Part shown: positions 24,878-47,444 of the stretch, in pieces
Layout of the letters: every line of letters begins with the position of its first letter
Numbering within the stretch: position 1 is the stretch's first letter
Assembly: GCF_045037415.1 (NCBI RefSeq)
Contig: NZ_CP173438.1
Reading direction: 5' to 3' (one strand)
DNA: 64,000 nt
DNA from: Escherichia coli
GTDB taxonomy: Bacteria > Pseudomonadota > Gammaproteobacteria > Enterobacterales > Enterobacteriaceae
Position numbers and translations under genes: made by a program
Notes under the pieces: generated by a model
The model's input: only the letters and a program-made list of their open reading frames with translations
What the model was told of the DNA's origin: nothing
Database searches by the model: none

Positions 24878-25354
24878 TTAAAGCAGACCATATTCGGCAA
24901 AGGAGAAAACCTGGCTGCCACCGACTATCAGATGGTCCGGCACCCGGATATCCACCAGGCCCAGTGCCTGTACCAGACGTTCCGTGATAAGGCGGTCTGC
25001 CTTGCTGGGTGTGACTTCACCGGACGGGTGATTGTGTGCCAGCACCACAGCAGCGGCATTGTGATACAGGGCGCGTTTAATCACTTCCCGGGGATGGACT
25101 TCCGTGCGGTTGATGGTGCCGGTGAAGAGGGTTTCACCGGCAATCAGCTGATTCTGGTTGTTCAGATACAGCACCCGGAACTCTTCACGCTCCAGTCCCG
25201 CCATGTTCAGAATCAGCCATTCTCGTGCCGCACGGGTGGAGGTGAAGGCCACGCCGGGTTCATGAAGATGGCGGTCCAGGGTTTTCAGGGCCCGTTGAAT
25301 GAGGCTGCGCTCGCCGGGCGTCATCTCTCCGGGCAGAAAGGAAAGCTGTTGCAT
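24878..25354 (-). CDS. yeeS: RadC-like JAB-domain protein (YeeS/YkfG/YfjY family)
   Basis: JAMM-like motif HNHPSGEVTPSKAD; conserved CP4-island position. Confidence 0.8.
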   Translation of the reverse strand: MQQLSFLPGEMTPGERSLIQRALKTLDRHLHEPGVAFTSTRAAREWLILNMAGLEREEFRVLYLNNQNQLIAGETLFTGTINRTEVHPREVIKRALYHNAAAVVLAHNHPSGEVTPSKADRLITERLVQALGLVDIRVPDHLIVGGSQVFSFAEYGLL

Positions 25355-25369
25355 TGTACTTCTCTCCAT

Positions 25370-25843
25370 TCAGTCGATGATGCGCATAATGGCGCTGCAT
25401 TCCGGATGCTGCAGGGCGTAATCCCGCAGCCGGTAATAATGGACCGTCATGGCATAACACTCCGTACGACAGGCATGATGACTGTACGTCATCAGACAGG
25501 CAGCAATGCCGGCGGCTTCCGGGCTCATTTCAGCGCGGTTACCGTTCATGGCATTGAACAGTACCCATGTTTCGTCATCATCGTCATCCGGTTCGGGTGC
25601 CATAAATGCCCCGCCGTTGTTCAGGGTGTACAGATTCCAGATACCACCGCAGTAGTCTTCACACAGACGGTCCATCCAGCCGAAGATACGGGGCTCCAGG
25701 GTCACCCACTGTGGAATGAGGCCAAAGTGCTGCGGCCAGAAGCTGATGCGCCGTTCATCAGGGACGGGAGTGGCTACCAGTTTTTGCAGGTCAGTCTCCG
25801 GTGCACAGGCCGAAGAGGTGGTGTTCTGAGACAATGTTTTCAT
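25370..25843 (-). CDS. Antirestriction protein (ArdB/KlcA-like, YfjX/YafX family)
   Basis: ATG at 25843; MKTLSQNTTSS...FGLIPQWVTLEPRIFGWMDRLCEDYCGGIWNLYTLNNGGAFMAP... Confidence 0.8.
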   Translation of the reverse strand: MKTLSQNTTSSACAPETDLQKLVATPVPDERRISFWPQHFGLIPQWVTLEPRIFGWMDRLCEDYCGGIWNLYTLNNGGAFMAPEPDDDDDETWVLFNAMNGNRAEMSPEAAGIAACLMTYSHHACRTECYAMTVHYYRLRDYALQHPECSAIMRIID

Positions 25844-26184
25844 GTATGAAATCCTTGTAATGTGAATAAATGAGAGGGAGTAAAGGTCGGGAGCTGGCAA
25901 CATCACGTTCATCACTGACCGTGATGACCCGGTAATATCAGGGATGAATGATATTCGGCTGAAATTCCGGACAGCCGTACGCGTAACCGTTCCGGTCACA
26001 GACGGATGGCCAGATGCCATTGCCTGTATACTCAGTCTGCACAGACTGATTTCTCCGGGACGGTAAAGCAGACGGGTACACCAGGCGCACAGGTCATCAT
26101 CAGAAATGGAACGACACCCCGGCAGCGCCTCCGGGGCGTCGGGTGATTCTGGTGCCTGAATCACGCCTTCAGGGACATGCTGCA

Positions 26185-27003
26185 TCAGCGCAGGCTCTCC
26201 AGCAGCGTTTCTGCCATTACCCACAATGCGCGGTTGAGCTTAATATCGGTGTCGATGTTGTGAATGGCACGGGTGTGGATACGTTTTCCTTTTGCACTGC
26301 GGCCGGAAATTCCGCCTTTCAGCATATTCTCCTGGATGGTCTGATATGCGCTCCACAGGTCTTTACCGTAATCCTCCCGGCGTCGTGGTGTCAGAATGTC
26401 AGCGGTGGTGACTGGCTGATGTTCGTCACCATAACGGTAAGTCAGTGCCGCCTGTGCCAGCGCCTGGCGTGTCGGTGGCGGCAGGACCAGCGACTGCATG
26501 GCATCACGCTTTTCCTCAATCCGGTCAAACACGCCCACCACCTCGTAAGCCCCTTCAATGACTCTGTCCACCACATTTCCCCGATGCGGAACACGCACTT
26601 CCCCCGGAGACTGACCACAGACGCATCCGTTCTGACAGACGAACCTGAAGTAACCCGGCAGCATCTGGTAGCTGGAGGTACCGTCATGGGAGTTGAGCAG
26701 AATGATTTCAGGGACATGTTCTCCGTTTATCTCTCCGGCCCGCCGCAGACGCAGCATGTGTTTTGTGTATCCCCGGCGGCCCGGGTCGCGCACACGGGTC
26801 TGGCAGGCGAAGAATGGCTGAAAGCCTTCCCGCTGCAGGCTTTCCAGTACGGTGATGGTGGGAATGTACGCATATCGTTTACTGCGGGAAGTATGCCGGT
26901 CTTCACCGAAAATACTGGGAACATAGTGCATCAGTTCTTCGTGTGTCAGCGGACGGTCACGGCGTATCTGGTTCGTATAACCAAAACGACTGGCTAGTCG
27001 CAT
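26185..27003 (-). CDS. DUF932-family protein (YafZ/YfjQ-like)
   Basis: 272-aa ORF in the conserved position between Ag43 and the antirestriction gene. Confidence 0.7.
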   Translation of the reverse strand: MRLASRFGYTNQIRRDRPLTHEELMHYVPSIFGEDRHTSRSKRYAYIPTITVLESLQREGFQPFFACQTRVRDPGRRGYTKHMLRLRRAGEINGEHVPEIILLNSHDGTSSYQMLPGYFRFVCQNGCVCGQSPGEVRVPHRGNVVDRVIEGAYEVVGVFDRIEEKRDAMQSLVLPPPTRQALAQAALTYRYGDEHQPVTTADILTPRRREDYGKDLWSAYQTIQENMLKGGISGRSAKGKRIHTRAIHNIDTDIKLNRALWVMAETLLESLR

Positions 27004-27157
27004 AATTTGCTCCTTATCGGTGGTTAAGATTTACTGGTGTAATAAATGAAAAAGCCACGTCTCCCGGAGAAGACGCGGCCTGACAGATGAAATGAATGAC
27101 GTTTATTGTCTGAGAAGCCCTTAACTGGCGAGCTGAGTATTAAGCTGTGTTCCGGCA

Positions 27158-27352
27158 TCACCAGCGCAACTGACCTTCAGCATTACGGATAACCAGCCGG
27201 GAATATGTTCCCTGGTCATCTTCAGTAAACACATTGCGGTAAGCTGTTTTGACGGCAACAGCCTGTTCGCGTGAGAAAGGGCCTTCGGGCAATAAACGTG
27301 ATGTACAACCCGGCATATCTGTTGCTCCCTGAAAGTAAAAAGCCCCGGTCAT
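27158..27352 (-). CDS. Small hypothetical protein (DUF905-like)
   Basis: 64-aa ORF between flu and the DUF932 gene; family assignment uncertain. Confidence 0.35.
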
Positions 27353-27363
27353 GATGACCGGGG
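27336..27363 (-). terminator. Rho-independent terminator downstream of flu
   Basis: GCCCCGGTCATcATGACCGGGGC hairpin followed on the minus strand by TTTTT. Confidence 0.55.
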
Positions 27364-27386
27364 CCTGAAGGAGAGTGACCTGATTA

Positions 27387-30233
27387 TCAGAAAGTCACAT
27401 TCAGCGTGGCCTGACCGTTATAACCTTCAGCGCTGCTGCCGCTGACGCTGTGGGCATAACCGCCCTGAACGCCCAGGGTGATATTTTCCCGGATACGGGC
27501 TTCCAGTCCGGCCTGCAGGTCCAGTGACGTGCCATTCCGGGACGGTGAGAACGTCATGTTACTGCCGGCTGCGGCTGTCCCCATGCTCATGTCACCCCGG
27601 GAGCTGAAGGTGCGGATAACAGAAGGCTGTACCCACCAGTTCACCGGCAGTTCACTCACACTGTGTTTTGCACTGTCGCGCAGGGTGTCACGGGATGAGG
27701 TGCCTTCACCAAAGCTCATATCGTTGTGGCTGCCCAGACGGAAACCGGCACGCACATGTTGTGCACTGCCATGCCCGAACTTCACATAACCGGCGTTATC
27801 CTGGCCGTCATCCAGGGAGAGTCCCTGCCAGGTGTACTGCAGTTGTGGCTCCAGCATCAGATTGTCAGTGATACTGAAGGGCAGACCGGTTTCCAGTGAG
27901 CCCAGCCAGCCCCAGCCCCGGGCGCGGAAGTCGTTATTGTCCGATGACGCTTTCATGCTGTGACGGGTTCCCTGGGCCACAATGTCAGCCCACAGGCCGG
28001 AGGATGTGTGTACCAGATTCAGGTATCCGCCCAGACTGCCGGCATCATCCCGGACCGTGCCGGCGCGGGAGCCGTCATCATCCTTAACATCAACGGAAGA
28101 ATGGCCTGCGGCACCATACACCCCTGTCGTCAGAGACATACCGGCAACCTCTGTTCTGAGCAGGTCACCCTCCAGACGGACGAAGCCATAGCTGCCGCTG
28201 CTTTCCGGCGTGGCTCCACGGGCAATACCGCCGTTGTTATCGTGACCGAGATGACCGCCCTGAATGCTGAGACGGACGCTGTTATTTTCACCGTTTACAC
28301 CGGTCTGATGGCTGCGGGAGCCTGCCAGAATCCGGTCATAGTCCATTGCCTGTGTCAGCATGGATGTATACAGGGGGACTTCAGCACGATAAGCATTTTC
28401 ACTGCGCAGGTACCAGTCTTCATCGCTGTCACGGTTCAGGGTGTAGTTAAAGGCGCCGGCCTGAAGCGGGCGACTCAGGGCAAACGCACCTTCTTCTGTG
28501 GTGGCGCCATTCTGTGCATCCACAACCCGGATACCCTGTCCGGAGGTTGCCACCCCAAGGTTACTGTTTCCGACATTTGTAAACGCAAGCCAGGTTTTGC
28601 CGGTTGCCTGACCACCATTAATCACCAGCTGGTCAGAGGTATTGCTGCCATCAAGGCGAACACGCATATTGATGGTGCCACCCTGACCGGTGAGGTTACT
28701 GGTGGTCAGTTTATGGAACGTTACCGGGGAGTCGCCTTTTGCAACAGCACGGCTCAGCGCGGCATCCGGTGTCGTCTGATTATCAAAGCGAATCTCCCCT
28801 GCGTTAACAATATCGCCGGTACTGACCACATCACCATTCAGTACCATGCTGGCACCTTTACTGAGCTGTGTTCTGCCACTCAGATTTCCCCCGGCAGCCA
28901 GCGTCAGTGTTCCACGATGTCCGACAGTGGTGTTGCCAGCCTGTCCTCCGGCATTAACCGTAAAGCTGCCGCCATTTTCCAGCAGCAGGCCGCTGGCCTG
29001 ACCGGAGATACCATCAATACTGAACTTACCGCTGGCATTGGTCCCCTCAACAGTGGCACCACTGTCTGCTATCAGGGCACCACCGGATGTCATGGTGACA
29101 TCTGTTGCCTTACCACCGGCAGACACTGCCAGGATACCGCCGTCATCCACCAGGGTATTCTGCGCTGAATGGCCTTCCAGTACATCCAGGCGACCACCGG
29201 ACTCCAGAACAACACCGTCAGCATTACCGTTTTCCACAGTGAAATTGCCCAGACGGTTGCTGCCGGTGACGGTTGCCGCCGTACTGGTGACCAGTGCGCC
29301 TCCCTGCTTCAGGGTGACATTCGTGGCTGTACCACCGGCGTTCACCTGCAGTTTGCCTTTCTGGTTAACGGTGGTGAAATCCGCCAGACCACCTTCCTTG
29401 ACAATCTGCCAGCCGTCACTGTTTACAACCGTGTCAGAGGCTGTGCCTCCGTTGTGCACATACTGGTAACCGCCATTCAGTGTGGTATCCAGCGCATGCC
29501 CGTGTACCGTCTGGTCGCCGCCGGCATAAACCACAGTGGTATTTGCTGTTCCTTCAGCAGCCACAATCTGACGACCATTTTTATTGATGGTGGTACGTAC
29601 GGCATTTCCGCGAACAAACTGCCCGGTATCACCATTGTCTGCATCTGGTCCCCCTTCCGCGCCGGTATTCACAACCGTGTCGGTTGCCATTGCGCCGGAT
29701 TTGACGGCCTGCCAGCCCTTCTCATTAATGACGGTACCCGTTGCAATCCCGCCTTCATGTACCCACTGCTCACCGCCGTTCAGAGTGGTATTCACTGCCT
29801 GCCCCTGAAGGCTCTGTCCTCCTCCGGCACTGATAACCGTGTCTGAAACGCTTCCTCCGGCATTCACTCTCTGAAGACCACCACCGGTGACAGTAGTGTT
29901 GTTGGCGATACCGCCATTTTGTATCCATTGTCCGCCGGTATTGGCCTCGTTATCCGGCCCATACTCCAGCCCGGTACTGATGGTCATTCCGTTGGCCGTA
30001 CCGAGGACAATCTGGTTGTCATGATTTGTCAGTGTTCCGTCGTTCACGGTTTCTCCCGCCTGTACAACCGTGTCAGCAGCCAGTGCCGGGACTGATGTGA
30101 CAGCAGCAAGAGACAGTGCAACCGCCACACCGGCGCGTTTTCCCCGTGAGCGGGCCAGTTCGGAGGCCACCACCAGGGTGCCCGTAATGTGATTCCATAC
30201 CAGCCTGTAGCTGGTGTTCAGATGTCGTTTCAT
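27387..30233 (-). CDS. flu: Antigen 43 (AIDA-I-type self-associating autotransporter adhesin)
   Basis: ATG at 30233 ([18 protein letters not shown]...), extended signal peptide, repetitive beta-helix passenger, C-terminal beta-barrel ending ...ATLNVTF. Confidence 0.9.
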
Positions 30234-30444
30234 CAGCTTTTCCTTACAGAGGGTGAATAAAAAAGCCGGTACCCACAAAAGTGGATACCGGCAGGTACAA
30301 AACAGCATGGTCAGATAAAGTGGTTTTTCCCGGACATAAATGCTTCCCCTCTCTCATCCGCCAGAGAAGTATCAGTCCGTTGTGTGCAATTCCGTTCTGC
30401 ATGATGAAGAGATTCAGCTGCCTTTTCGCAGACCATTAACCACT

Positions 30445-30490
30445 ATAAACGATCGATGGTAACGATCGATACCTGTTTTATCGATCGTTT
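30445..30490 (-). promoter_or_regulatory. flu (agn43) phase-variation switch region with three clustered GATC (Dam) sites
   Basis: GATC at 30451-30454, 30464-30467 and 30483-30486 upstream of the flu start. Confidence 0.55.
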
Positions 30491-30580
30491 TATTCTATTA
30501 ACAGCAGAGCAGTCACGCAAGAGAAACAGGAGGGGGATGGAGTGTTTGTATCATGTTTTCAGTTGGTTAACGCAATGTAA

Positions 30581-31477
30581 TCAGGCATTTCCCCTGGCAG
30601 AGTGTTCAGAAGAAAATCCAGTTCCATACAGCGCGGGCAACAGAGACCACCGTGTCACGGACGGCACGCAGAACCGTGCGTGCAACAGAGGCAATACAGA
30701 CGCTCTCCGCCGTGTCAAATATCCGGTCCACCGCACCGGTAAACTGTTCACGGGCCTGAACCGGACAGATTCCGTGCGCAGCTCGTCCTGCAGGCGGGTC
30801 ATCAGGGGACTGGCGGCATGGTCGGGAAGTGCTGTCATGAGCGCACTGACCAGCGTATCCAGTTCCCAGCCGGTGCGGGCCGATACGGCCACAACCGGAT
30901 GTACGGGCCGGAACAGACGGAATACCGCCTCCGTTTTCTCCCGAATGTTCTGTGCCTGTGCGGGAGAAGGCTGAATGCCGGCCATATCCCATTCATGGCA
31001 GGGCTCCGTTTTGTCGGCCTGCGTCACCACAAACAGCACCTGCTGATGTCCCCGGTGCAGGATGTGTCGCCAGAAATACTCATCCACAGACAGGGCACGG
31101 TCATCGGCTTTAATCAGCCACAGTACCAGGTCAAGTTCAGGCAGAATGTCACGGTACAGGGCTTCATACTCTGCATCCCTGTTCCGGCTCTCGCCCACCC
31201 CGGGCAGGTCAGTGATAACCATGCTGTGACCATGGCCACTCAGACGGAAGCGCCGTACTTCCCGGGTGCCGGCGTGAACATCACTGACCGGGGTGACCTC
31301 CCCCTGAAACAGTGCATTACAGAGTGAGGATTTACCGGCCCCGCTTTTACCCATAATGCCAATCACGGGTTCGTGACTGGTGAGTTTGCGCAGATGTTCC
31401 AGGATGTGACGGGAAAGCGAGTAAGGCAGGGAGGAGAGCGGTTTTTCAATTGCCTCAATGGCATCAGACGGATTCAT
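30581..31477 (-). CDS. yeeP: YeeP/YkfA/YfjP-family GTPase, probable C-terminal frameshift near 30770-30780
   Basis: G1 motif GIMGKSGAGKSS, G3 DLPGVG; the conserved C-terminus (...QAREQFTGAVDRIFDTAESV...) is in another frame (ORF 30606-30992). Confidence 0.7.
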   Translation of the reverse strand: MNPSDAIEAIEKPLSSLPYSLSRHILEHLRKLTSHEPVIGIMGKSGAGKSSLCNALFQGEVTPVSDVHAGTREVRRFRLSGHGHSMVITDLPGVGESRNRDAEYEALYRDILPELDLVLWLIKADDRALSVDEYFWRHILHRGHQQVLFVVTQADKTEPCHEWDMAGIQPSPAQAQNIREKTEAVFRLFRPVHPVVAVSARTGWELDTLVSALMTALPDHAASPLMTRLQDELRTESVRFRPVNSLPVRWTGYLTRRRASVLPLLHARFCVPSVTRWSLLPALYGTGFSSEHSARGNA

Positions 31478-31561
31478 ACATGTATTCCCGGTGAAAAAAG
31501 ACAAAACCCCCGCACACCGGAAAGGTGGCGGGGGACTCACGGAGATAATATATGTCTGAAA

Positions 31562-32479
31562 TTATCTGGAATGTCGGTACCTTTTATACTCTTCAACAAT
31601 CAGGTCATGCAGCATTTCGCCGGTACTGAGTCTTCTGACCCTCGATAATTCTTTGAGCTGCGCCCTGGTTTCTGCGTCAAGAAAAAACTGTACATTGACT
31701 TTATCTTCCTGCATTTTTTTGTACTTGCGCTGCGCCTTGGCCTTATTGAAACTGTTTCTGAAATTTTTTATATCGTCAGGTGAGGTGAGTGGACAGGTAA
31801 CCCATATGTCAAATGAAAGGTGGATTGCGTGGTAAATATCAGCAGAACCAGGAAAACTGGCCAGTTTTTCCAGTGCAATATTTTTTCCCTTCAAATAATT
31901 CCATGTCCATATGCATTCATGTTCGTTCTCCGGGAGGAGGTAACTGAAAGGACTCTTTGATTTAAATGCCCGTATCCATCTGTCTTTGGTCTGGATTATC
32001 CACTCATCCCGCAAATTCTTATCAGAAAGAATATCGAGAACTCTGAGTATTTGTCTGAACTGTGTCGATGAGTCCGACGGGAAGGCATTCCCTTCCAGAT
32101 ACTCTTCTTTAAGATACAGTTTATTCTTTTGAAGCAAGTCTGCGCTTATTTTTGCCCTGTTATTCTGGATAAACTGCATCAACAGATACCAGGAAAATAA
32201 GCATGCGCGTTCACTGCCCGCGATCCAGGATATTTTTTCCAGGGGGACCAGGAAGGCCAGGGCCTTCAGACGCATACCAGAAATTATTTGTTCAAGTTCA
32301 AAATCTGAAAGTGTGATGTTCAGATTTTCTCTGTTTTTTTTTATGTAAGCGATAAAACGTTCCGGGGGATCATAAACATTAAGGGGCAGTACGGAGATAT
32401 TACGCTCTCCAAGATAATAAGAGTAATACGCATTTGTTCTTTCATTCATAACCTTATCCGACAAAATTTTCTGAACCAT
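31562..32479 (-). CDS. Hypothetical protein (305 aa) with C-terminal ribbon-helix-helix-like segment; AT-rich
   Basis: Long uninterrupted ORF; C-terminus VNVQFFLDAETRAQLKELSRVRRLSTGEMLHDLIVEEY; no recognised family. Confidence 0.6.
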   Translation of the reverse strand: MVQKILSDKVMNERTNAYYSYYLGERNISVLPLNVYDPPERFIAYIKKNRENLNITLSDFELEQIISGMRLKALAFLVPLEKISWIAGSERACLFSWYLLMQFIQNNRAKISADLLQKNKLYLKEEYLEGNAFPSDSSTQFRQILRVLDILSDKNLRDEWIIQTKDRWIRAFKSKSPFSYLLPENEHECIWTWNYLKGKNIALEKLASFPGSADIYHAIHLSFDIWVTCPLTSPDDIKNFRNSFNKAKAQRKYKKMQEDKVNVQFFLDAETRAQLKELSRVRRLSTGEMLHDLIVEEYKRYRHSR

Positions 32480-33679
32480 CCTCTTTCTCCGGTTGCTTAA
32501 AAATTAAACATAATAAGGTGATAATAACATGATAAAAAGAAGTTTATAATAGTATATTAAGGTGGTCAATAAAAAGGCAATCTGCGCGCTGTACAGTCAT
32601 TCTGACAGGAAATGCAGGAGGAAGGGAAGGTAACCGGCTTCGTTATGCTGACAGGAATACCTGTTATCATGGAAGTGCACTCATGTGGCCGACGTAGCTT
32701 AAGAGGATGGAAGAGTGGAGACTGCAGACAGGGGGTATTGAAAGGTAAACATGTTTCGCCCGCCAGCTGCACCGGGGGCCAGCATCACTTTTTTTACGTT
32801 GTAACCCGGTATGCATTCCGGCTTTGATGATTACAGTCAGAGGGCAGCAGACTGACGTTATTTAACCGGACAGAAAAATTATGGACACTGAAATATCGTC
32901 TGTTAATACCTCGTTTGTCGGTGTGGTATTCCCTGTATTACCGGCGTCACCGATAAAGAGAGTTATAAACGCCAGAAAGGTACCTCCTTTATGCCGGGGA
33001 ACACTTACGGAAAATGAAGTCTGAAAAGGAGCACAATGAAAAGAGGCGTGTCCCGTAAATATAACGAATCATCGCAGGATATGCATTATCAGGTGATACC
33101 AGAGGGCATTAAACTGTCGCCACGGATAAGAATATACAACATTTCTGATAACAAAACATCATAACGTGTTTCAGATATGTTCCGGCATCAGTCTGACGGA
33201 TATTATTTCCCGGGAAAACAAACCTGCTACTGTGACGGTTAACTGTATCTGCATAAATTATTTATGATGAAAGAACAGTATTACGGATTCAAATATCATC
33301 CTGTTTGCATTCAGGCGGACATTCCCGGATGCCGGAAAGAATATCCTGCAGGCTGAGTGAGTCTCTTCCACAGTGCCGGGATCGCTGTCGCCACGTACAT
33401 ATTGTCACCAGGATGGGTATGTACCGCAGCATGCCATTTCTGGTGAATAACCGCACCTGCACATTCAGTCTGCTGAGAACCTGGCGTGCATCGGGCTGTA
33501 AAGAACATCCCTGTCCGTGGCTCCTCTGGTGGTGTTGCCTGCTCAGCAATGACAGGATGCCCTTAAGACGCCCGTCATGGCTCAGTATGATGACGACGAA
33601 CACGCTCTGCAGGTGAGCATGCGGGGCCGGGAGCATCATCATTTCCGTATTTTGTCACACCTTCCGGAAGCAACCGGCA

Positions 33680-34297
33680 TCAGTTGCGGTTATCGTCAAC
33701 CGTTGTGCGGTATGCCAGGAGCACGTACTGATCCATCAGATCCGTCAGTGCTGCGCTCTGCCTCTGACGGTTGATGATCCATTCCTCCAGCTCTTTTTCT
33801 GATTTCCGTTTCAGGTTCTCTTTCCAGTCTTCAAGGCTGTTTCCGGTCATTAAATCAAGCCAGCAAAGCCAGACCAGTTTGAGGCGCAACTCCGTGCCAC
33901 CAAACTGACGGAAGAGGCTAATCAGTTTATTTGCCAGAGAACGCTGCCTCAGACGTTCACATTCAGACAGGAGAATGCCTTCCAGCATCGGATGATGAAC
34001 CAGCAGATGTTCACTGGTGCATAAATTCACTATCAGATCATCATCCAGGGGCGGCGTGGCCCGTTTGTCAGGGCCATAAATCAGCCGGTGCAGGCTCTGG
34101 GGTACGATGGCAATCTCCGGTTTTTCACCATTGAATGACACCCACCCGGGCGTCAGATTATGGAAGTAGTAGATATTCGGATGACACACGCCCCAGGATA
34201 CGGCGTGCCGGGTGAAGCCGGTCAGCCATTTCTGGTAGCTTTCGTGGAGCAGTTCGTAACGGGTCTGATACTGTTGTTTCATTTTCATATTCCTCAC
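33680..34297 (-). CDS. Hypothetical protein (205 aa) downstream of alpA
   Basis: ORF only; no recognised motifs. Confidence 0.45.
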   Translation of the reverse strand: MRNMKMKQQYQTRYELLHESYQKWLTGFTRHAVSWGVCHPNIYYFHNLTPGWVSFNGEKPEIAIVPQSLHRLIYGPDKRATPPLDDDLIVNLCTSEHLLVHHPMLEGILLSECERLRQRSLANKLISLFRQFGGTELRLKLVWLCWLDLMTGNSLEDWKENLKRKSEKELEEWIINRQRQSAALTDLMDQYVLLAYRTTVDDNRN

Positions 34298-34377
34298 GGG
34301 GGATATAACAGGCAGCAGAATGCCGCCGGCAGGCCGGGGATTACGTCTGCTGCGGGTGAACGGATAACGGTCAGAAA

Positions 34378-34584
34378 TTACGGGCGGGGCTGTGCAATAC
34401 GCGCCTGTAGCCAGGCTTCCACTTCACTTTTCAGCCAGCGGGAGCTGCGGCCCAGCTTGATGGGAGCCGGAAAGGCCCCATCCCTGATGAGCCTGTAAAA
34501 CCACTTATCTGTCAGGCCGTTCAGTTGAGTGATAAATGCCATGTCGACCATCTGGTCATCCATCAGTGAAACTGGGGTGGTCAT
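34378..34584 (-). CDS. alpA: AlpA-family prophage transcriptional regulator
   Basis: ATG at 34584; ...FITQLNGLTDKWFYRLIRDGAFPAPIKLGRSSRWLKSEVEAWLQARI typical of AlpA. Confidence 0.8.
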   Translation of the reverse strand: MTTPVSLMDDQMVDMAFITQLNGLTDKWFYRLIRDGAFPAPIKLGRSSRWLKSEVEAWLQARIAQPRP

Positions 34585-35309
34585 GAGAATGTTCCTCCGG
34601 ATGTTGTTAATCTCAACCGGCGTTGGTGATGAAAACAACGCACCACCTTCACCGGCATAACAACCGGGGAGAAACGTAAAAAATAATCGGGAATGTGACC
34701 GTCAGGAGATAAACGGGGGGATTGCGGTGGCTGAGCCGTACCGGTATGTCGGGTGGTTGTTGCGAAACGATGCTTCCGCACGCGCACGCGATAAAGGAGG
34801 GAGGACTTTCGTGAGACAAGGGGAAAACTAGCGTTCTGATAATTGCAGAGTTGTTTTTGAAGGCGGTTGTGGTATATCAGCCTGTGACCTGTGGGCAGGC
34901 GACAGTTATCACTGGTGGGATAAGACTGTCTGATTGGTATTATAAATATATAAGAGAGATCAAACACATGAGATCAAATACATGAGTTCATATATGTGAA
35001 ATAAACACTGTGAGTGCGATCAGTGGGCATGAGAACGCAGTAGCAGCAGATTGCGTTGTACCCACAGGGCTATCTCTGATAGCTGGCGTATAACCTGCGT
35101 ATATAAAACGTACCTGCAACACACGTGAACAGAGTGCATTAAGCATCCGTCTGAGCGGTAAACGTATCCGACCTGGTGAGTGACAGTCTGAGAGACCGGT
35201 TAAGTGGTGGCACGGGAGTAATGAGTTTGGGGAGGGTACCAGAATGCCAGGCTGGTGCGGTATGCTGACAGCATCCTGTTAACCGCAGCATAAAGTAATG
35301 AGAGGCTAA

Positions 35310-35507
35310 TGGAAGTTAAAACCACAGCAGTTCCGTCGTTGTTCATCCCGGGAGACGCTGGAAAAAGTGATTTCCCACACGCGTTATAAACTTACCCCTG
35401 CGGAGCTGGAAGCCTTTAACTCTGCCGTTGACAACCGGCTGGCAGAACTGACAATGAACAAACTTTACGATCGCGTGCCGGCTTCCGTCTGGAAATATGT
35501 CACCTGA
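35310..35507 (+). pseudogene. Hha/YmoA-family regulator homolog lacking an in-frame start (likely N-terminal frameshift)
   Basis: Frame gives ...RRCSSRETLEKVISHTRYKLTPAELEAFNSAVDNRLAELTMNKLYDRVPASVWKYVT*; an ATG at 35309 is in the +1 frame. Confidence 0.4.
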
Positions 35508-35839
35508 ATCTTGAATCCGCGCTACGATGACTCCGGTGTTATCTGTGCACCGGAAGATCGGGAACATTAAGCAGTATAACGGCAACAAAGAATTCGAAAT
35601 CAAAAGGGAATGGTGTACAGAGGGGCAGGCGTTCAGGCATTACCGGCCTGTATCTTCTGAAGGGGACTCGTATTTGTCGGGGCTGAGTATTCCGCTCGAT
35701 TCGATCACGGATTGGCGGAATACCTGACTGTGATTGATTCAGATACCATTTTGCAGGGAGCCGGTGCGTTACTGTCTGGCACAACAAACGCAGCGGGTCG
35801 CTCTGCCCCGCCGATTCCTGATAATCCCTCCCCTGTAAC

Positions 35840-36034
35840 CTACTGCAACAGTACAAATACACTGACGCCTGAAACGGTAACCAGAATCAGCACCAGCAGT
35901 AACGTCAGTAAACAGAGCAGACGATCGGTCTTCCGGTAATAACCGAAGGGGTCGACAGCGCCACAATACGGGCAACAAACTGTATTATGAGTAATTGCGT
36001 TACCACAGTCCCTGCACTTCTTTTTGCGTATCAC
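35840..36034 (-). CDS. Small zinc-ribbon membrane protein (hypothetical)
   Basis: 64 aa; CRDCG...CCPYCG followed by a hydrophobic helix. Confidence 0.35.
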   Translation of the reverse strand: MIRKKKCRDCGNAITHNTVCCPYCGAVDPFGYYRKTDRLLCLLTLLLVLILVTVSGVSVFVLLQ

Positions 36035-36236
36035 GATAGCTCCCTCGCCACGCCTTATCCGTAACCGGTTTTTTACATTAAAAAAAACAACGCCGGGAAT
36101 TCAATCGTCAGTCCGGAGACGACCGTTCGGGTTATCACAGAGTGCCTGAGACAGTGTCCTGCCGGAGGTCACTTCAGGGACTCTGCGTATTTTTTACGAC
36201 GTGGCTATTCCGTATGAACCATACGGAGATTTAACC

Positions 36237-36806
36237 ATGACCTACAAATACAACCCCTTCTGGCAGCAACGTATTCGTGAGACGGTGCGGCACGCACTGA
36301 ATGTTCATCCCCGCCTGACGGCATTGCGGGTTGACCTGCGTTTCCCGGATGTACCGGCAGCAACGGACGCAGCTGTGATATCCCGCTTCATCAATGCCCT
36401 GAAAGCCCGAATCGACGCTTACCAGAAACGTAAGCATCGGGAAGGTAAACGCGTGCATCCCACAACCCTGCATTACGTCTGGGCCCGGGAGTTTGGGGAG
36501 TGCAAAGGTAAAAAACACTATCACCTGATGCTGCTGGTTAACCGGGATACCTGGTGTCGTGCCGGTGATTACCGTGCTCCGGGATCACTGGCCGGGATGA
36601 TTAAACAGGCGTGGTGCAGTGCCCTGGGAGTGGATGTCGGGTGCCATGCCACGCTGGTGCATTTTCCGGCCTGGCCGGCGGTGTGGCTGGAACGCGATGA
36701 TGACACTGGCTTTCAGCAGGTGCTGGAACGTGCTGACTATCTGGCGAAGGAACATACCAAAGCTCACTGCACCGGTGAGCGCAATTTTGGCTGTAGCCGG
36801 AGTTGA
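36237..36806 (+). CDS. Inovirus Gp2-like / YagK-YfjJ family protein (HUH rolling-circle Rep-like)
   Basis: ATG at 36237 (MTYKYNPFWQQRIRE...); HUH-like motif KKHYHLMLLVN; family recalled from CP4-6/CP4-57. Confidence 0.7.
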   Translation: MTYKYNPFWQQRIRETVRHALNVHPRLTALRVDLRFPDVPAATDAAVISRFINALKARIDAYQKRKHREGKRVHPTTLHYVWAREFGECKGKKHYHLMLLVNRDTWCRAGDYRAPGSLAGMIKQAWCSALGVDVGCHATLVHFPAWPAVWLERDDDTGFQQVLERADYLAKEHTKAHCTGERNFGCSRS

Positions 36807-37059
36807 GCACGACTGGCGCGCCAATACCCGGCAAACCAAAAGTATGGGTTGTTGTCTGGCGGCAACGATGTATCCACTCGCCCACTGACTGTTTTTTACG
36901 TCAGTGTTCCATTGTGTGACAACCACAGTGCTGTAACAGCAACCAGCCTGCTTTACCCAAACTCCAGTCCAGATTTTAACTGAACCGCCATTCACACCCT
37001 GACCACGCTGCCCGTACCGGGACGGCTGTTGCCTGCGTGTCGTCTGGCGGCTGAGGAAT

Positions 37060-37467
37060 ATGACTATGTACGCAAAATCCTTTATCGCTCTTGATGGCAA
37101 CGGACGTCTGACGGGCGCCCGTACTGCACAGGCCGCACCTTATGCTCACTACACCTGCCACTTGTGTGGCAGTGCACTCAGATACCATCCGCAATACGAC
37201 ACTGAACTTCCCTGGTTTGAACACACTGACGACAGGCTGACAGAGCACGGTCAACAGTGCCCTTATGTCAGGCCGGAGCGCAGAGAAATACAGTTGATTA
37301 AACGTCTGCAGCAATTCGTACCGGATGCCTTACCCGTGGTGCGTAAAGCCAGCTGGCACTGCAGACAATGTCACCACGATTATTATGGGGAGCAGTACTG
37401 CACACACTGCCAGACCGGAGGATTCAGTATTCCCCGGACAACTCAGGAGGAAATATGCGAATTCTGA
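37060..37467 (+). CDS. Zinc-ribbon protein resembling the N-terminal domain of CoiA-like competence proteins (paralog 1)
   Basis: YTCHLCGSALRY...PWFEH...WHCRQCHHDYYGEQYCTHCQTGG; paralogous to the next ORF. Confidence 0.5.
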   Translation: MTMYAKSFIALDGNGRLTGARTAQAAPYAHYTCHLCGSALRYHPQYDTELPWFEHTDDRLTEHGQQCPYVRPERREIQLIKRLQQFVPDALPVVRKASWHCRQCHHDYYGEQYCTHCQTGGFSIPRTTQEEICEF

Positions 37468-37889
37468 ACTGTTATATGGCGAATGACAGCAAAGGCCATT
37501 TTGTTACGGCGAAAGAAGCTGCGAAGCACAACCGACAGGACGTTTTGTGCTGTGTGTCCTGTGGATGCCCGTTAACACTTCAGCGGGGCAATGACGGACA
37601 ACCACCGTGGTTTGAACATGACCAGATGACTGTCGCTGAAAAAATCCTGCTGCGATGTACCTGGCTTGACCCGGCAGAGAAAGAGGCCCGTCGTTTGCAT
37701 CTGCAGGGCATGACGGTTCCGGATTATACGGTGAAGGTGAGAAAGTGGTTTTGTGTGATGTGTGACGAAGATTATGAGGGGGAAAAGTGCTGCCCACGCT
37801 GCGGTACCGGGGTATACAGCAGGGCGTGGGGGCGGCAGGAGGTGCCGTCGGAAGATGCCAGGGCTGATAATCCGTTACAGAGGCTGTAA
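37455..37889 (+). CDS. Zinc-ribbon protein resembling the N-terminal domain of CoiA-like competence proteins (paralog 2)
   Basis: LCCVSCGCPLTL...PWFEH...WFCVMCDEDYEGEKCCPRCGTGV; start overlaps paralog 1 by 13 bp. Confidence 0.5.
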   Translation: MRILNCYMANDSKGHFVTAKEAAKHNRQDVLCCVSCGCPLTLQRGNDGQPPWFEHDQMTVAEKILLRCTWLDPAEKEARRLHLQGMTVPDYTVKVRKWFCVMCDEDYEGEKCCPRCGTGVYSRAWGRQEVPSEDARADNPLQRL

Positions 37890-38045
37890 TGGTTGCCTCC
37901 GGAGCAGTTTGCGGTGATGCCTTTCCCGGGAATGGATTGCCAGTGCGGGGACTGTGGAGCTTAATTCCGGTGTTGGTGGCCTTTCCATTGATTTTATGCC
38001 AACAGCCCCCTGTGACTGACAGGCTGCCTCGTCATTCCATTCGTA

Positions 38046-38151
38046 TCTCCAGTAACAGGGGGTTGTATTGTATTTTATTGTACCGGTTCAGGTGTGCGTT
38101 TCCCGGCGCGTCTGCACCGGCTTAACCAAATTCAACAGGGATAAAATAGTG
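38046..38151. repeat. About 110-bp repeat, copy 1 (second copy at 58765-58875), abutting the IS66 left end
   Basis: tctccagtaacagggggttgtattg...caacagggataaaatagtg is near-identical at both loci (copy 2 has an extra 5 bp); flanks differ. Confidence 0.7.
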
Positions 38152-38222
38152 GTAAGCGTACAGCCTGAACCGTCTGGTCAGAATCTGACGAATTAGACAA
38201 AGTGGTGTCCACCAAATAAGTA

Positions 38223-38624
38223 GTGGGAACCAAAGTGTCAGATATGCAGAAAAATGTGACTCCCGGCAGGCGAAAAGGCTGCCCTAATTATCCTCCCGAA
38301 TTTAAACAGCTGCTCGTTGCTGCCTCCTGTGAACCCGGGATATCCATCTCAAAACTTGCTCTTGAAAATGGCATTAACGCCAATCTGTTGTTCAAATGGC
38401 GACAACAATGGCGCGAGGGAAAGCTGCTATTACCTTCTTCAGAGAGCCCCCAGCTACTTCCTGTGACTCTCGATGCAGCTGCCGAACAGCCAGAATCGCT
38501 CGCAGAGGACCCGGAAACCCTCAGTATCAGCTGTGAGGTAACGTTCCGGCACGGGACGCTCCGCTTCAATGGCAATGTCAGCGAAAAGCTCCTGACTCTG
38601 CTGATACAGGAACTGAAGCGATGA
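38223..38624 (+). CDS. IS66 accessory protein TnpA (orf1)
   Basis: 133 aa with HTH (ISISKLALENGINANLLFKWRQQ). Confidence 0.8.
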   Translation: MGTKVSDMQKNVTPGRRKGCPNYPPEFKQLLVAASCEPGISISKLALENGINANLLFKWRQQWREGKLLLPSSESPQLLPVTLDAAAEQPESLAEDPETLSISCEVTFRHGTLRFNGNVSEKLLTLLIQELKR

Positions 38625-38968
38625 TCCCGTTACCTTCCGGGACCAAAATTTGGCTGGTTGCCGGTATCACCGATATGAGAAATGGCTTCAACGGCCTGGC
38701 TGCGAAAGTACAAACGGCGCTGAAAGACGATCCCATGTCCGGCCATGTTTTCATTTTCCGGGGCCGCAGCGGCAGTCAGGTTAAACTGCTGTGGTCCACC
38801 GGTAACGGACTGTGCCTCCTGACCAAACGGCTGGAGCGTGGGCGCTTCGCCTGGCCGTCAGCCCGTGATGGCAAAGTGTTCCTTACGCAGGCGCAGCTGG
38901 CGATGCTGCTGGAAGGTATCGACTGGCGACAGCCCAAGCGGCTGCTGACCTCCCTGACCATGCTGTAA
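38621..38968 (+). CDS. IS66 TnpB (orf2)
   Basis: 115 aa, MIPLPSGTKIWLVAGITDMRNGFNGLAAKVQ... typical IS66 orf2. Confidence 0.85.
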   Translation: MIPLPSGTKIWLVAGITDMRNGFNGLAAKVQTALKDDPMSGHVFIFRGRSGSQVKLLWSTGNGLCLLTKRLERGRFAWPSARDGKVFLTQAQLAMLLEGIDWRQPKRLLTSLTML

Positions 38969-39017
38969 ATCTCTTTATCCTGGTTGTCACAGAATAAGCC
39001 CGGTAAAATACGGGCTT

Positions 39018-40403
39018 ATGAACGACATCTCTTCTGACGACATCTTCCTGCTAAAACAGCGCCTGGCCGAACAGGAAGCGCTGATCCACGCCCTGCAGGA
39101 AAAGCTGAGCAACCGGGAGCGCGAAATAGACCATCTGCAGGCGCAGCTGGATAAACTCCGCCGGATGAACTTCGGCAGTCGTTCCGAAAAAGTCTCCCGC
39201 CGTATCGCACAAATGGAAGCCGATCTGAACCGGCTTCAGAAAGAGAGCGATACGCTGACTGGTAGGGTGTATGACCCGGCAGTACAGCGTCCGTTGCGTC
39301 AGACCCGCACCCGTAAGCCGTTCCCTGAATCACTACCCCGTGACGAAAAGCGACTGTTGCCTGCGGCGCCGTGCTGCCCGAACTGCGGCGGTTCACTGAG
39401 CTATCTGGGCGAGGATACCGCCGAACAGCTGGAGTTGATGCGTAGCGCCTTCCGGGTTATCCGGACGGTACGGGAAAAACATGCCTGTACTCAGTGCGAT
39501 GCCATCGTGCAGGCACCTGCACCTTCGCGGCCCATCGAGCGGGGTATCGCCGGACCGGGGCTGCTGGCCCGCGTGCTGACCTCGAAGTATGCAGAGCACA
39601 CCCCGCTGTATTGCCAGTCAGAAATATACGGCCGGCAAGGTGTGGAGCTGAGCCGTTCACTGCTGTCGGGCTGGGTGGATGCATGCTGCCGGCTGCTGTC
39701 TCCGCTGGAAGAGGCGCTTCATGGCTATGTCATGACTGACGGCAAACTCCATGCCGATGATACCCCGGTCCAGGTACTGCTGCCGGGTAATAAGAAGACG
39801 AAGACCGGGCGGTTGTGGGCGTATGTTCGTGATGACCGCAATGCCGGGTCAGCGTTGGCACCTGCAGTGTGGTTCGCTTACAGCCCGGACAGAAAAGGCA
39901 TCCATCCGCAGACTCATCTTGCTTGCTTCAGCGGTGTGCTGCAAGCGGATGCGTACGCCGGGTTCAACGAGCTGTATCGCAATGGTGGGATAACGGAAGC
40001 TGCCTGCTGGGCTCATGCCCGCCGAAAGATCCACGATGTGCACGTCCGCATCCCGTCAGCACTGACGGAAGAAGCCCTAGAGCAGATCGGTCAGTTGTAC
40101 GCCATAGAGGCGGATATAAGGGGAATGCCGGCAGAGCAGCGGCTTGCTGAACGTCAGCGAAAAACGAAACCGCTGTTGAAATCCCTGGAAAGCTGGTTGC
40201 GTGAAAAGATGAAGACCCTGTTCTTCGGCTCTGGCCATGGTGGTGAGCGGGGAGCGCTACTGTACAGCCTGATCGGGACGTGCAAACTGAATGACGTGGA
40301 TCCAGAAAGCTACCTTCGCCATGTGCCTGGCGTCATAGCAGACTGGCCGGTCAACCGGGTCAGCGAACTGCTTCCGTGGCGCATAGCACTGCCAGCTGAA
40401 TAA
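39018..40403 (+). CDS. IS66-family transposase TnpC (orf3), possibly shortened
   Basis: 461 aa with leucine-zipper N-terminus, CxxC zinc motif and DDE core; shorter than the recalled ~520 aa. Confidence 0.8.
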   Translation: MNDISSDDIFLLKQRLAEQEALIHALQEKLSNREREIDHLQAQLDKLRRMNFGSRSEKVSRRIAQMEADLNRLQKESDTLTGRVYDPAVQRPLRQTRTRKPFPESLPRDEKRLLPAAPCCPNCGGSLSYLGEDTAEQLELMRSAFRVIRTVREKHACTQCDAIVQAPAPSRPIERGIAGPGLLARVLTSKYAEHTPLYCQSEIYGRQGVELSRSLLSGWVDACCRLLSPLEEALHGYVMTDGKLHADDTPVQVLLPGNKKTKTGRLWAYVRDDRNAGSALAPAVWFAYSPDRKGIHPQTHLACFSGVLQADAYAGFNELYRNGGITEAACWAHARRKIHDVHVRIPSALTEEALEQIGQLYAIEADIRGMPAEQRLAERQRKTKPLLKSLESWLREKMKTLFFGSGHGGERGALLYSLIGTCKLNDVDPESYLRHVPGVIADWPVNRVSELLPWRIALPAE

Positions 40404-40641
40404 CACATCCCCGTCAATACGGCCCTCGCTGTACGCTTACTTTTGTTCGGACTGCTTATGGCCTTTTTCCACTGGTGTAGCAGGAAAGTTAACCGGCTGC
40501 CACCATGAGATGACGTGTAAACCGTGCAGGCATGTTTTCACGTGGTGACGCTTTCATTGGGGGTCTACGCCGGAACCCCAATATTGTTCACATACATGAA
40601 TTTGAAAAACTAAGCGATACTGCTGTCCGTACCTTATAAAC

Positions 40642-42000
40642 TTATTTCAACGCTTCCGGCAGCGTCACAATCCACAGTTCACTGTCAGACTCCGGTTTCT
40701 CCAGTGGCTTCACTCTGAGGGTCGTTTCAACCTGCTTGTCGTCAAGCGTCAGCTTTCCTTCCGCGTTCACCCGATAATCCTTGAATGTCTTGCCCTCGAC
40801 CGGATGTTGCATCGCCACCTTCACGCCAAAGTCGTTATCGTTCGCCACCGCCAGCGTTTTGCTGTCGATCAGCGCCAACCCTTCAGCCTTCTCCTGCTGC
40901 CAGCCCAAGGAGCGCAGATCAACAACCTGCGTTTTCTGCGCAAGGGTAATGCCGCGCTGTGACAGGGTTTTCTCATCATCAAACTCCGGATACTCACCCG
41001 GCTTGTCGAAGCCTGACAGGTCGCTCGCCTTATTGAGATCGACCTCGTAAATCAGGTTACGCATTCTGTTGTTTTTATCTCTTCCCTGTTCGATCAGCAG
41101 GATGTGCTGGTTATCGAGCGCCACGATGTCTCCGATTTTAGCGTCGCTGTTTTTGCTGTAGGCCGCGCTGTCGATAGGATAACCGTACATCGCGGTTTTT
41201 CCGCTTGCCGGATCGAAGCTCACCAGACGCGTAAACAGCGCCTTTTTCTTGCTCTTAGCGTCGATATCCAGCGTACTTTGCACGGCGACAATAATACGCC
41301 CGTCCGGCATACGGGTGAGGCCTTCAAAGCCGCGGTTCGCCTGACGCCATTTGAGGATATTTGGCAAACCGCCCGCAATCGCTTTTTCCCCTTCCGCCGC
41401 CTGCGGACCGTGGATTGCCAGGATTTTCCCTTTACTGTCGATGTTAATCAGGAACGGGCCATACTCATCGCACAGCCAGTAACCTCCTTTACCATCCGGA
41501 GTGATCCCTTCCGTATCCAGCCCGCGATTATCCCCCTTCAGTCTATGTAACGTGTCGCTGAAGGCCACTTCATTGGTGGAGCCAATCACGTCGCTTGCCA
41601 GCGGCAGACCGTTGATCGCGCCTTTATCGTCATGCAGAGGACGGGGATCGATGGCCTCCGCTTTGCCGTTTTGTACACGAATCGTCATCAGCAGCGGCGC
41701 GAAATCTGGCGTAACGAAAATTTTAGTTTCGTTTTTCCCCTCTTTCGGTGAATCCGCGTTCGGACCGCGATCGGTAATGGTTGCGAATGTCAGGGCATCG
41801 CCCTGTTTACCGGTGAACAGCAGGCCAGAACCTATCCCAACCGGAAGGCCGTTCGGGAATGCACTGGCAAATGCGCCGGCGTAGTTCACGTGCGTGCCTT
41901 CTGGAAAACTGACGACATAGCGCTCAGCCGTAGGTTGTGCCGCCAGGGCAGAGAAAGAGAGCGTACAACCGATTAGCACGGGAATAATTTTTCTTTTCAT
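40642..42000 (-). CDS. Secreted esterase-like / phytase-like family protein
   Basis: ATG at 42000; signal peptide MKRKIIPVLIGCTLSFSALA; family assignment tentative. Confidence 0.7.
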   Translation of the reverse strand: MKRKIIPVLIGCTLSFSALAAQPTAERYVVSFPEGTHVNYAGAFASAFPNGLPVGIGSGLLFTGKQGDALTFATITDRGPNADSPKEGKNETKIFVTPDFAPLLMTIRVQNGKAEAIDPRPLHDDKGAINGLPLASDVIGSTNEVAFSDTLHRLKGDNRGLDTEGITPDGKGGYWLCDEYGPFLINIDSKGKILAIHGPQAAEGEKAIAGGLPNILKWRQANRGFEGLTRMPDGRIIVAVQSTLDIDAKSKKKALFTRLVSFDPASGKTAMYGYPIDSAAYSKNSDAKIGDIVALDNQHILLIEQGRDKNNRMRNLIYEVDLNKASDLSGFDKPGEYPEFDDEKTLSQRGITLAQKTQVVDLRSLGWQQEKAEGLALIDSKTLAVANDNDFGVKVAMQHPVEGKTFKDYRVNAEGKLTLDDKQVETTLRVKPLEKPESDSELWIVTLPEALK

Positions 42001-42289
42001 ATTGTTAGCATCCATAAAGTGAAGATCACACTACACCATAAAGAAGAAACGAGTCAGGAAAATGACATCGAATGGCAACATGCGCGGGCCTGAGGCCAAA
42101 GAAATGTAAAACACTGTTGTTATTTGTAACAACGGAAACATTTACGGAAATTATTTGTCTTTCTTCGTGATCAAAAATGCTGTGTCTTGTTGGATTGGAG
42201 TGATGAGGGCTGCGTTTAGGAAACGCCCTATATTGTACGGTTGCATTATCGCGGTAGGGGTAATGCACGTGTCAGTATGATGAGCTGAC

Positions 42290-42415
42290 CACACTCACGT
42301 GGGTGGACTGGTATAACAATCGACGATTGCTGGAAAGGCAGGGCCATATCCCACCGGCAGAAGCAGAAAAAGCTTATTATGCTTCCATCGGAAACGATGA
42401 TCTGGCAGCCTGAGT
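42290..42415 (+). pseudogene. Possible integrase-core (transposase) C-terminal fragment
   Basis: Frame gives ...VDWYNNRRLLERQGHIPPAEAEKAYYASIGNDDLAA*, resembling transposase C-termini. Confidence 0.25.
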
Positions 42416-42572
42416 TCACAGATAAAACACTCTCCAGGAAACCCGGGGCGGTTCACTTAGCCGCGTGTCCATTATTGCTGGATAAGATCACACTTTAAAA
42501 TGCCCTATATAGGGTTAACCAGTAATTATCTGTATGATAGCTTTGAGTTCGGGAGGAGGTAATGACTCCAAC

Positions 42573-42968
42573 TTACTGATAGTGTTTTATGTTCAGATAA
42601 TGCCCGATGACCTTGTCATGCAGCTCCACCGATTTTGAGAACGACAGTAACTTCCGTCCCAGCCTTGCCAGATGTTGTCTCAGATTCAGATTATGTCGCT
42701 CAATGCGCTGAGTGTAACGCTTGCTGATAACGTGCAGCTTTCTCTTCAGGCGTGATTCATACAGCGGCCAGCCATCCGTCATCTATACCACGACCTCAAA
42801 GGCCGACAGCAGGCTCAGAAGACGCTCCAGTGTGGCCAGAGTGCGTTCACCGAAGACGTGCGCCACAACCGTCCTCCGTATCCTGTCATACGCGTAAAAC
42901 AGCCAGCGCTGACGTGATTTAGCACCGACGTAGCCCCACTGTTCGTCCATTTCAGCGCAGACAATCAC
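42573..42968 (-). pseudogene. insB: IS1 insB with internal nonsense codon (TAG at 42783-42785)
   Basis: Reads ...[20 protein letters not shown]...; canonical IS1 has W at the stop position. Confidence 0.6.
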
Positions 42969-42994
42969 ATCACTGCCCGGTTGTATGCGCGAGG

Positions 42995-43270
42995 TTACCG
43001 ACTACGGCCTGAGTTTTTTAAGTGACGTAAAACCATGTTGAGGCCAACGCCCATAATGCGTGCACTGGCGCGACATCCGACGCCATTCATGGCCATATCA
43101 ATGATTTTCTGGTGCGTACCGGGCTGAGAGGCGGTGTAAGTGAACTGTAGTTGCCATGTTTTACGGCAATGAGAGCAGAGATAGCGCTGATGTCCGGCAG
43201 TGCTTTTGCCGTTACGCACCACGCCTTCAGTAGCGGAGCAGGAAGGACATCTGATGGAAATGGAAGCCAC
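42995..43270 (-). CDS. insA: IS1 InsA
   Basis: 91 aa [42 protein letters not shown]... Confidence 0.9.
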
Positions 43271-43498
43271 GCAAGCACCTTAAAATCACCATCATACACT
43301 AAATCAGTAAGTTGGCAGCATTACCGAAATCCCCATCCTTTAGGGCAGTGAGGATGTCAATAATAGCAGACCACATCATGAGTCATTCTGACCGACACAT
43401 GCCAGAAGCAGAGGCTCCATCCCATTTTATACCTACCTTATAACACTTAGAAAAACAACATGTTAAAAATGTCTATTGGAAACAATTTTATTTCCAAT

Positions 43499-43561: not shown

Positions 43562-44079
43562 ATGTCTGACCGCGCCACTACCACAGCTTCCTTAACGTTC
43601 GAGTCGCTTTATGGCACACATCACGGCTGGTTGAAAAGCTGGCTGACGCGCAAACTCCAGTCTGCTTTTGATGCAGATGACATTGCCCAGGACACTTTTT
43701 TGCGGGTAATGGTCAGCGAAACGCTCTCGACGATCCGCGATCCTCGCTCCTTCCTCTGCACTATCGCCAAACGCGTGATGGTGGACCTGTTTCGCCGAAA
43801 CGCGCTGGAAAAAGCGTATCTGGAGATGCTGGCGCTTATGCCGGAGGGGGGAGCGCCTTCACCTGAGGAACGCGAAAGCCAACTCGAGACCCTACAACTC
43901 CTCGACAGCATGCTGGACGGGCTAAACGGCAAAACACGTGAAGCGTTTCTGCTTTCGCAACTGGATGGTCTGACATACAGCGAGATTGCGCACAAACTCG
44001 GTGTTTCCATCAGCTCCGTGAAAAAATACGTGGCGAAAGCCGTCGAGCACTGCCTGCTGTTCCGTCTGGAGTATGGGTT

Positions 44080-44083
<4 letters not shown>
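43562..44083 (+). CDS. fecI: ECF sigma factor FecI
   Basis: 173 aa matching recalled FecI. Confidence 0.95.

Positions 44084-47444
<3,361 letters not shown>

Follow-up and report, generated by a model that had tools for sequence, protein, structure and literature searches.

What is encoded by a gene that stands alone among insertion sequences, where did it come from, and is it of use to the cell that carries it? These questions are raised by the single gene between two insertion sequences in the stretch analyzed here, a 64,000-nt window of Escherichia coli DNA (hereafter the window), which is a chromosomal island. The favored reading, given a probability of about 0.55, is that the gene encodes a PhoB-regulated, Sec-exported periplasmic beta-propeller phosphoesterase for phosphate scavenging, captured from an Enterobacter-like genome and travelling with fec. 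Coordinates of the gene, its candidate promoter elements and its neighbors are collected in Table 1.

Table 1. Positions of the gene, its upstream elements and the flanking features in the window.
Feature	Positions	Strand	Basis
CDS, 452 aa, PF13449 'Phytase-like' beta-propeller protein (WP_000823243.1; SRL PAI orf34)	40642..42000	-	ORF list, Pfam, RefSeq annotation, AF2 model, PMC6980539
Signal peptide, about residues 1-20/21, predicted cleavage between MKRKIIPVLIGCTLSFSALA and A, Sec/SPase I type	41938..42000	-	Hydropathy; n/h/c regions inspected by hand
Pho-box-like site ATGTCATTTTCCTGACTC, 11/14 core matches to CTGTCAT-N4-CTGTCAY	42051..42068	-	Orthologous sites 11-14/14 at the same position, 69 species loci
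TATGGT as candidate -10 hexamer with no -35; Pho box exactly 10 nt upstream	42035..42040	-	Spacing as in K-12 phoA, phoB, pstS
DNA homologous to the chromosomal Enterobacter/Lelliottia locus, ~83-87% nt (captured segment)	40636..42155	.	BLAST homology limit
Second upstream block, also conserved in Enterobacter, AATAATTTCC..AAATGTTTC..GTTGT.ACA.ATAA..ACAG..TTTACATTTC	42100..42155	-	Alignment
IS66-family element, tnpA/tnpB/tnpC, terminal inverted repeats GTAAGCGTACAGC	38152..40440	+	
IS3-family transposase fragment (pseudogene)	42282..42413	+	RefSeq annotation transferred from Nissle 1917
IS1F, insA intact, insB with internal stop	42558..43325	-	
fecI, fecR, fecA, start of the ferric-citrate uptake operon	43562..47444	+	

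In the six-frame ORF list, the minus-strand ORF ran from 40642 to 42015 and gave 457 aa from its first ATG; a second in-frame ATG, at 42000, gave the 452-aa protein with the N-terminus MKRKIIPVLIG.... The second ATG was taken as the start, because homologues are 450-452 aa long and the upstream ATG is a CTG in the Enterobacter orthologues, which rules out 42015. The 452-aa ORF of the initial annotation is intact, and its product is identical to RefSeq WP_000823243.1. The esterase/phytase-like assignment made there also stood up to a profile search: Pfam PF13449 ('Phytase-like') was matched far above chance (E = 4.6e-43, 148.6 bits vs. a cutoff of 27.6) over profile positions 4-284 of 284, passing the gathering threshold, so that the protein is a full-length, high-scoring member of the family. 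No other Pfam family was matched at E ≤ 0.01, and the NCBIfam search with the same protein returned no model.

The AF2 model of WP_000823243.1 was all-beta (pLDDT 95.1, pTM 0.91), and the protein is read as an exported beta-propeller enzyme of an uncharacterized 'phytase-like' family. Among 53 relatives (29-89% identity), the conserved residues were D77-R78-G79-x-N81, D162/E164, E179-Y180 and N222-R223-G224-x-E226, followed by R258, D291, E304-Q305, E373 and D388/D390. Many of the acidic ones are held at strand starts in the model, and the window copy keeps every family-conserved residue. The structure libraries searched contained no solved structure of a PF13449 member, and a single-sequence search of the PDB with the 452-aa protein gave no match. 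Structural neighbors were chemically diverse, comprising YjiK, glutaminyl cyclases, GH43/GH130 enzymes, SGL lactonases and NHL domains; the YjiK/SdiA-regulated domain (PDB 3qqz), itself without known function, and the human soluble calcium-activated nucleotidase SCAN-1 (2h2n) aligned over only 218-230 of the 452 residues, at only 13-17% identity.

This diversity of neighbors, together with the fact that homology assigned no catalytic residues, speaks for a propeller protein that acts in binding or as an enzyme (lactonase, lyase, cyclase or glycan-active) and whose chemistry has nothing to do with phosphate; the Pho box described below would then mark a secondary role in the starvation response, for example in envelope remodelling. 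We consider it unlikely, as it is countered by the company that the family keeps: PF13449 domains are fused specifically to 5'-nucleotidase, metallophosphoesterase and ParB-like nuclease domains, distant members respond to P stress, and the conserved Arg/Lys and Asp/Glu set fits phosphate and metal binding. Further fusions were to SLH and T9SS cell-surface anchors and to a choice-of-anchor I domain. Cyanobacterial PF13449 proteins are among the exported or exoproteome proteins induced by P stress (PMC9846622, PMC11020310, PMC4949707).

The signal peptide reported in the initial annotation was confirmed when the N-termini of the query and of 52 relatives (29-89% identity) were inspected by hand; nearly all of these relatives have a comparable one. 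The N-terminus (MKRK-IIPVLIGCTLSFSALA, then AQP after the predicted cleavage point) begins with positive charges (n-region), continues as a hydrophobic core and ends in an A-x-A site. No Tat motif was seen in the 452-aa protein, and a lipoprotein reading (L-I-G-C12) was ruled out, the Cys being too near the N-terminus and not conserved in relatives. As the signal is of typical Sec/SPase I type, export to the periplasm is predicted rather than secretion. The description of the protein as secreted thus holds for the Sec signal and is otherwise better worded as exported to the periplasm, no secretion-system partner, chaperone or regulator having been found by the gene in the contexts examined.

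The main new point concerns the DNA upstream of the gene, where sequences vary freely among genera except for one conserved element, a pair of TGTCA-containing 7-mers with a spacing of 11 bp. Sites were scored against the Pho-box core CTGTCAT-N4-CTGTCAY (PMC4447250, PMC2648988). All 69 Enterobacterales species loci, which are phylogenetically related and do not represent 69 independent observations, and the window had a match of 11-14 out of 14, placed 57-79 nt upstream of the ATG. In random 120-nt windows from the same loci, scores of at least 11 occurred in 0.84% and of at least 12 in 0.11%. When the promoters were dereplicated at 70% identity (n = 34), the 25-nt upstream flank carried 0.07 bit per position vs. 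1.6 bit for the half-sites, a value that is inflated because each footprint was aligned on its best match to the consensus; the TA of the -10, which this alignment did not use, carried 2.0 and 1.6 bit. The consensus over these 34 promoters was CTGTCATTTTTCTGTCAT, 10 nt and TATAAT. Positive controls from MG1655, run with the same script, scored 13/14 (phoA), 12/14 (phoB) and 14/14 and 12/14 (pstS), and each showed the box, 10 nt and -10 in the same layout as the orthologues.

This gene thus shows the promoter layout of the Pho regulon, with a Pho box standing where the -35 would be and a spacing of about 10 nt to the -10. A scan of the upstream DNA for sigma-70 consensus promoters gave none, which fits a promoter that depends on an activator. 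Of all the boxes, that of E. coli is the weakest: the second tract reads TGACT, where Enterobacter has TGACA and most other genera have TGTCA, so that PhoB control of this copy could be weak or lost. Judged from promoter architecture, Pho control of the family in Enterobacterales is likely, and for the E. coli copy the chances of PhoB control are about even. The literature yielded no expression or ChIP data on this gene; what is new here is the conserved Pho-box architecture and, with it, a predicted new member of the Pho regulon. The phosphatases of phoA type, which are PhoB-dependent and periplasmic, are alike in predicted Sec export and in a Pho box standing for the -35, 10 nt before the -10. 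They differ in that the phoA product has the alkaline-phosphatase alpha/beta fold vs. a beta-propeller here, and in that the E. coli box reaches only 11/14. Some orthologous promoters (upstream regions of loci L032 and L072, and locus L063) contain three or more tandem TGTCAT repeats, e.g. CTGTCATCCTTCAGTCATCTTTCTGTCATG, which points to a pair of Pho boxes, overlapping or in tandem, like that at pstS.

Under the PhoB-type phosphoesterase reading, a 1.5-kb piece comprising the gene and its promoter was captured from an Enterobacter-like chromosome and now lies among insertion sequences in the leuX/fec island, carried by about 40% of E. coli. The promoter would be of the PhoB-activated type, with the Pho box in place of the -35 and 10 nt upstream of the -10 hexamer, so that PhoB~P would switch the gene on when phosphate is limiting. 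The protein would then be exported to the periplasm, where it would hydrolyze organic phosphate esters or anhydrides and release Pi, in a reaction that is probably metal/Ca2+-dependent and would use the conserved acidic residues. Of this picture, the analysis shows the ORF, its family, the signal peptide, the propeller fold, the IS setting, the origin and the conserved Pho-box layout, while PhoB control of the E. coli copy, the phosphoesterase chemistry and the need for a metal are inferred.

It is tempting to extend this to the family as a whole, with PF13449 as an unrecognized class of PhoB-regulated exported beta-propeller phosphoesterase beside PhoA, PhoD, PhoX, PafA and Psip1; we consider this extension less likely than not. 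Psip1 was itself recognized only in 2024, and some cyanobacterial Psip1 proteins have an added phytase-like domain, so new beta-propeller phosphatases are still being recognized (PMC11098088). If the prediction is true, the textbook E. coli Pho regulon is incomplete, K-12 having lost a member in a 39-kb deletion adjacent to IS1F; a phosphate-starvation enzyme that is invisible to K-12 studies would be present in many clinical and commensal E. coli, and the same enzyme in most Enterobacter, Pantoea, Serratia and Buttiauxella. The widespread PF13449 family, to which P-stress proteins abundant in marine cyanobacteria belong, would also gain its first physiological role. Should the prediction fail, what remains is an annotated passenger in linkage with fec.

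The origin of the gene was traced by homology. The closest relatives outside E. coli were chromosomal genes of Enterobacter and Lelliottia (89-91% aa), followed by Pantoea, Pluralibacter, Scandinavium and others at ~80% aa and by Buttiauxella, Serratia, Yersinia, Cronobacter and Cedecea at ~65%. In Enterobacter the location of the gene is constant, with a divergent yfaZ-like gene on one side and yjiA-yjiX-cstA on the other. No conserved operon partner was found in Pantoea, [Enterobacter] lignolyticus, Enterobacter or three distant relatives, the gene being monocistronic throughout. Homology of the window to the Enterobacter locus was confined to 1.52 kb, i.e. the gene together with the 155 bp that precede it, and since nucleotide homology covers only this part, the gene and its own promoter were captured together as one piece from an Enterobacter-like bacterium. 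That only about 1.5 kb (gene and promoter) is Enterobacter-like DNA is also new here. The second upstream block has both direct (TTTCCGT-N5-TTTCCGT) and inverted (GTTGTTA-CAAA-TAACAAC) repeats, and may in Enterobacter be part of the promoter of the divergent yfaZ-like gene; just downstream of it, E. coli lacks 12 nt that are present in Enterobacter (...TATACG...).

To the left of the captured segment, the tnpA/tnpB/tnpC genes of the IS66-family element (38223-40403) lie within inverted repeats at 38152 and 40440. Compared with the 523-aa ISCro1-type transposase, tnpC (39018-40403) has an in-frame deletion of ~51 aa near 40220 that takes out the conserved ...NNIAENALR... segment, and the element is therefore probably defective and immobile; RefSeq carries no pseudogene flag for this tnpC. 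To the right, the order is IS3 fragment, IS1F, ykiE and fecIRABCDE, and in E. coli the gene is physically linked to fec. Coordinates of the IS3 fragment were obtained by adding 20399 to those of the Nissle 1917 locus. A gene alone between insertion sequences with a transposase fragment nearby, as first described, is therefore what the locus contains. A composite transposon, i.e. two copies of one functional IS around a cargo, was not found in the window, as the flanking elements differ and one of them is defective. Delivery of the gene as IS cargo, also proposed initially, is plausible in view of the 1.52-kb homology segment and an IS1-bracketed plasmid block (below).

The gene sits in the leuX/fec island, in the neighborhood of Ag43, fec and CP4-type genes. 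The 64-kb window contains no tRNA gene, so the island's attachment site lies outside it, and an Rfam search of 40300-43600 gave no match. The 2-kb gene region was 100% identical to many genomes, Nissle 1917 included; over a longer stretch, identity to Nissle was 99.45%, which indicates another strain as the source of the window. Both gene and setting have been catalogued before: the same arrangement forms orf34-orf37 of the Shigella flexneri SRL pathogenicity island, with the same gene next to the same IS66 neighbor and a 99.78% match in the re-annotation table, orf34 having been annotated originally as 'putative periplasmic protein (C. jejuni)' (PMC6980539). No functional work on the gene was found in the literature. 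Apart from the extent of the captured segment, novelty is confined to the predicted addition to the Pho regulon and a first hint at the physiology of PF13449.

The gene and its promoter (40642-42160) were present in 2262 of 5426 complete E. coli genomes (~40%), with 66 plasmid places; all E. coli copies were at least 99% identical, and 2190 of the 2262 genomes had the gene at full length. At least 64 plasmid records carried it at ≥99% identity. On the IncHI1B-type E. coli plasmid NZ_CP010234 (locus L005, 9737-14781), a 2,992-bp block corresponding to window positions 39464-42455, with the 3' part of tnpC, the gene and the IS3 fragment, is enclosed by two IS1 copies in the same orientation. Two other E. 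coli strains (L080 and L081) had the same order of IS66, gene, IS3 fragment, IS1F and fec. Both have an additional ~1.3 kb between IS3 fragment and IS1F (8773-10110), with an ariR/ymgB-like gene and further IS fragments, which is absent at window positions 42414-42557, the window version being shorter. Carriers include ExPEC lineages (S88, ST131) and Nissle 1917. A truncated 352-aa form of the present allele (cluster P0072) had 439 member sequences, and a second, divergent allele (71% identity; cluster P0078) was found in some E. coli.

MG1655 matched the window on both sides and lacked 3204..42557 (39.35 kb), with the junction exactly at the outer end of IS1F. Most simply, this gap would be an IS1-adjacent deletion in the K-12 lineage. 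The missing stretch holds R-M systems, Ag43, CP4-type genes, the IS66 element and the phytase-like gene.

These distribution data bear on whether the gene might be a neutral hitchhiker in E. coli, linked to a selected fec operon, with a decaying promoter and no contribution to fitness. K-12 does without the gene at no obvious cost, truncated alleles circulate, and the Pho box is more degenerate in E. coli than anywhere else in the set, 12 nt of the upstream conserved region being missing relative to Enterobacter; since the E. coli copies are all ≥99% identical, an intact ORF may merely reflect recent spread. We nevertheless regard a passenger status as distinctly unlikely, on account of the full-length ORF in nearly all carrier genomes, the retention of all family-conserved residues and the separate movement of the same block onto plasmids. 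Like the other three rivals (phytase, host factor, non-phosphate propeller), it is less well supported than the PhoB-type phosphoesterase reading.

The name given to the protein in Pfam and RefSeq would make it a genuine phytase, dephosphorylating myo-inositol hexakisphosphate in the gut and opening dietary phytate phosphorus to E. coli. Pho regulation is compatible with such a role, a GWAS paper speculates on a 'phytase family protein' associated with chicken E. coli (PMC12987596), and an orthologue is listed among 'phytase-encoding sequences' in Pantoea brenneri genome notes (PMC12697123). A phytase is nonetheless very unlikely, as 'phytase' is a mere label taken from Pfam, behind which no assay was found. 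The models of beta-propeller phytase (3-phytase, PF02333), PhoX (PF05787) and histidine acid phytase were all unmatched (Pfam, E ≤ 0.01). A profile search of PDB sequences returned only generic NHL/'Pizza' blades and a marginal Drp35 match, so no function could be transferred. PhoX, Psip1 and beta-propeller phytase (BPP), which are exported, Ca2+-dependent beta-propeller enzymes induced by P limitation, are parallels to the enzyme predicted here; PhoX and BPP differ in that their Pfam models show no sequence match to the present protein and their propellers were not among its top structural matches. Literature searches on the accession, PF13449, phytase-like/Pho regulon and atypical alkaline phosphatase gave only passing annotations, no biochemical assay of any PF13449 member was found in the searchable literature, and the names of protein clusters of distant relatives added no functional information. 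The Streptomyces SCO7697 'phytase' and the atypical PhoA of Synechococcus PCC 7942 might be PF13449 members.

A role in host interaction, raised in the initial annotation, for instance as a virulence factor acting at the surface or after secretion on host lipids or glycans, would suit a gene that shares its island with Ag43, fec and CP4-type genes, equals orf34 of the Shigella SRL pathogenicity island and occurs in ExPEC lineages (S88, ST131) and on an STEC outbreak virulence plasmid (PMC13094856), but it is unsupported and highly improbable, given that probiotic Nissle 1917 also carries the gene, that no secretion system, chaperone or regulator is associated with it, and that orthologues (60-91% identity) are chromosomal in Enterobacter, Pantoea, Buttiauxella, Serratia, Cedecea and others, many of them soil, plant-associated or environmental Enterobacterales, under promoters with a nutrient-starvation signature, a conserved Pho box that points to phosphate scavenging.

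Two database records met in the homology searches (L006, L032) look mislabelled. A 'Ruminococcaceae' MAG contig was 99.5% identical to the E. coli segment, and a 'Chryseobacterium sp. 18061' contig carried an Enterobacterales-type orthologue with a promoter nearly identical to that of 'Citrobacter sp. 18056'.
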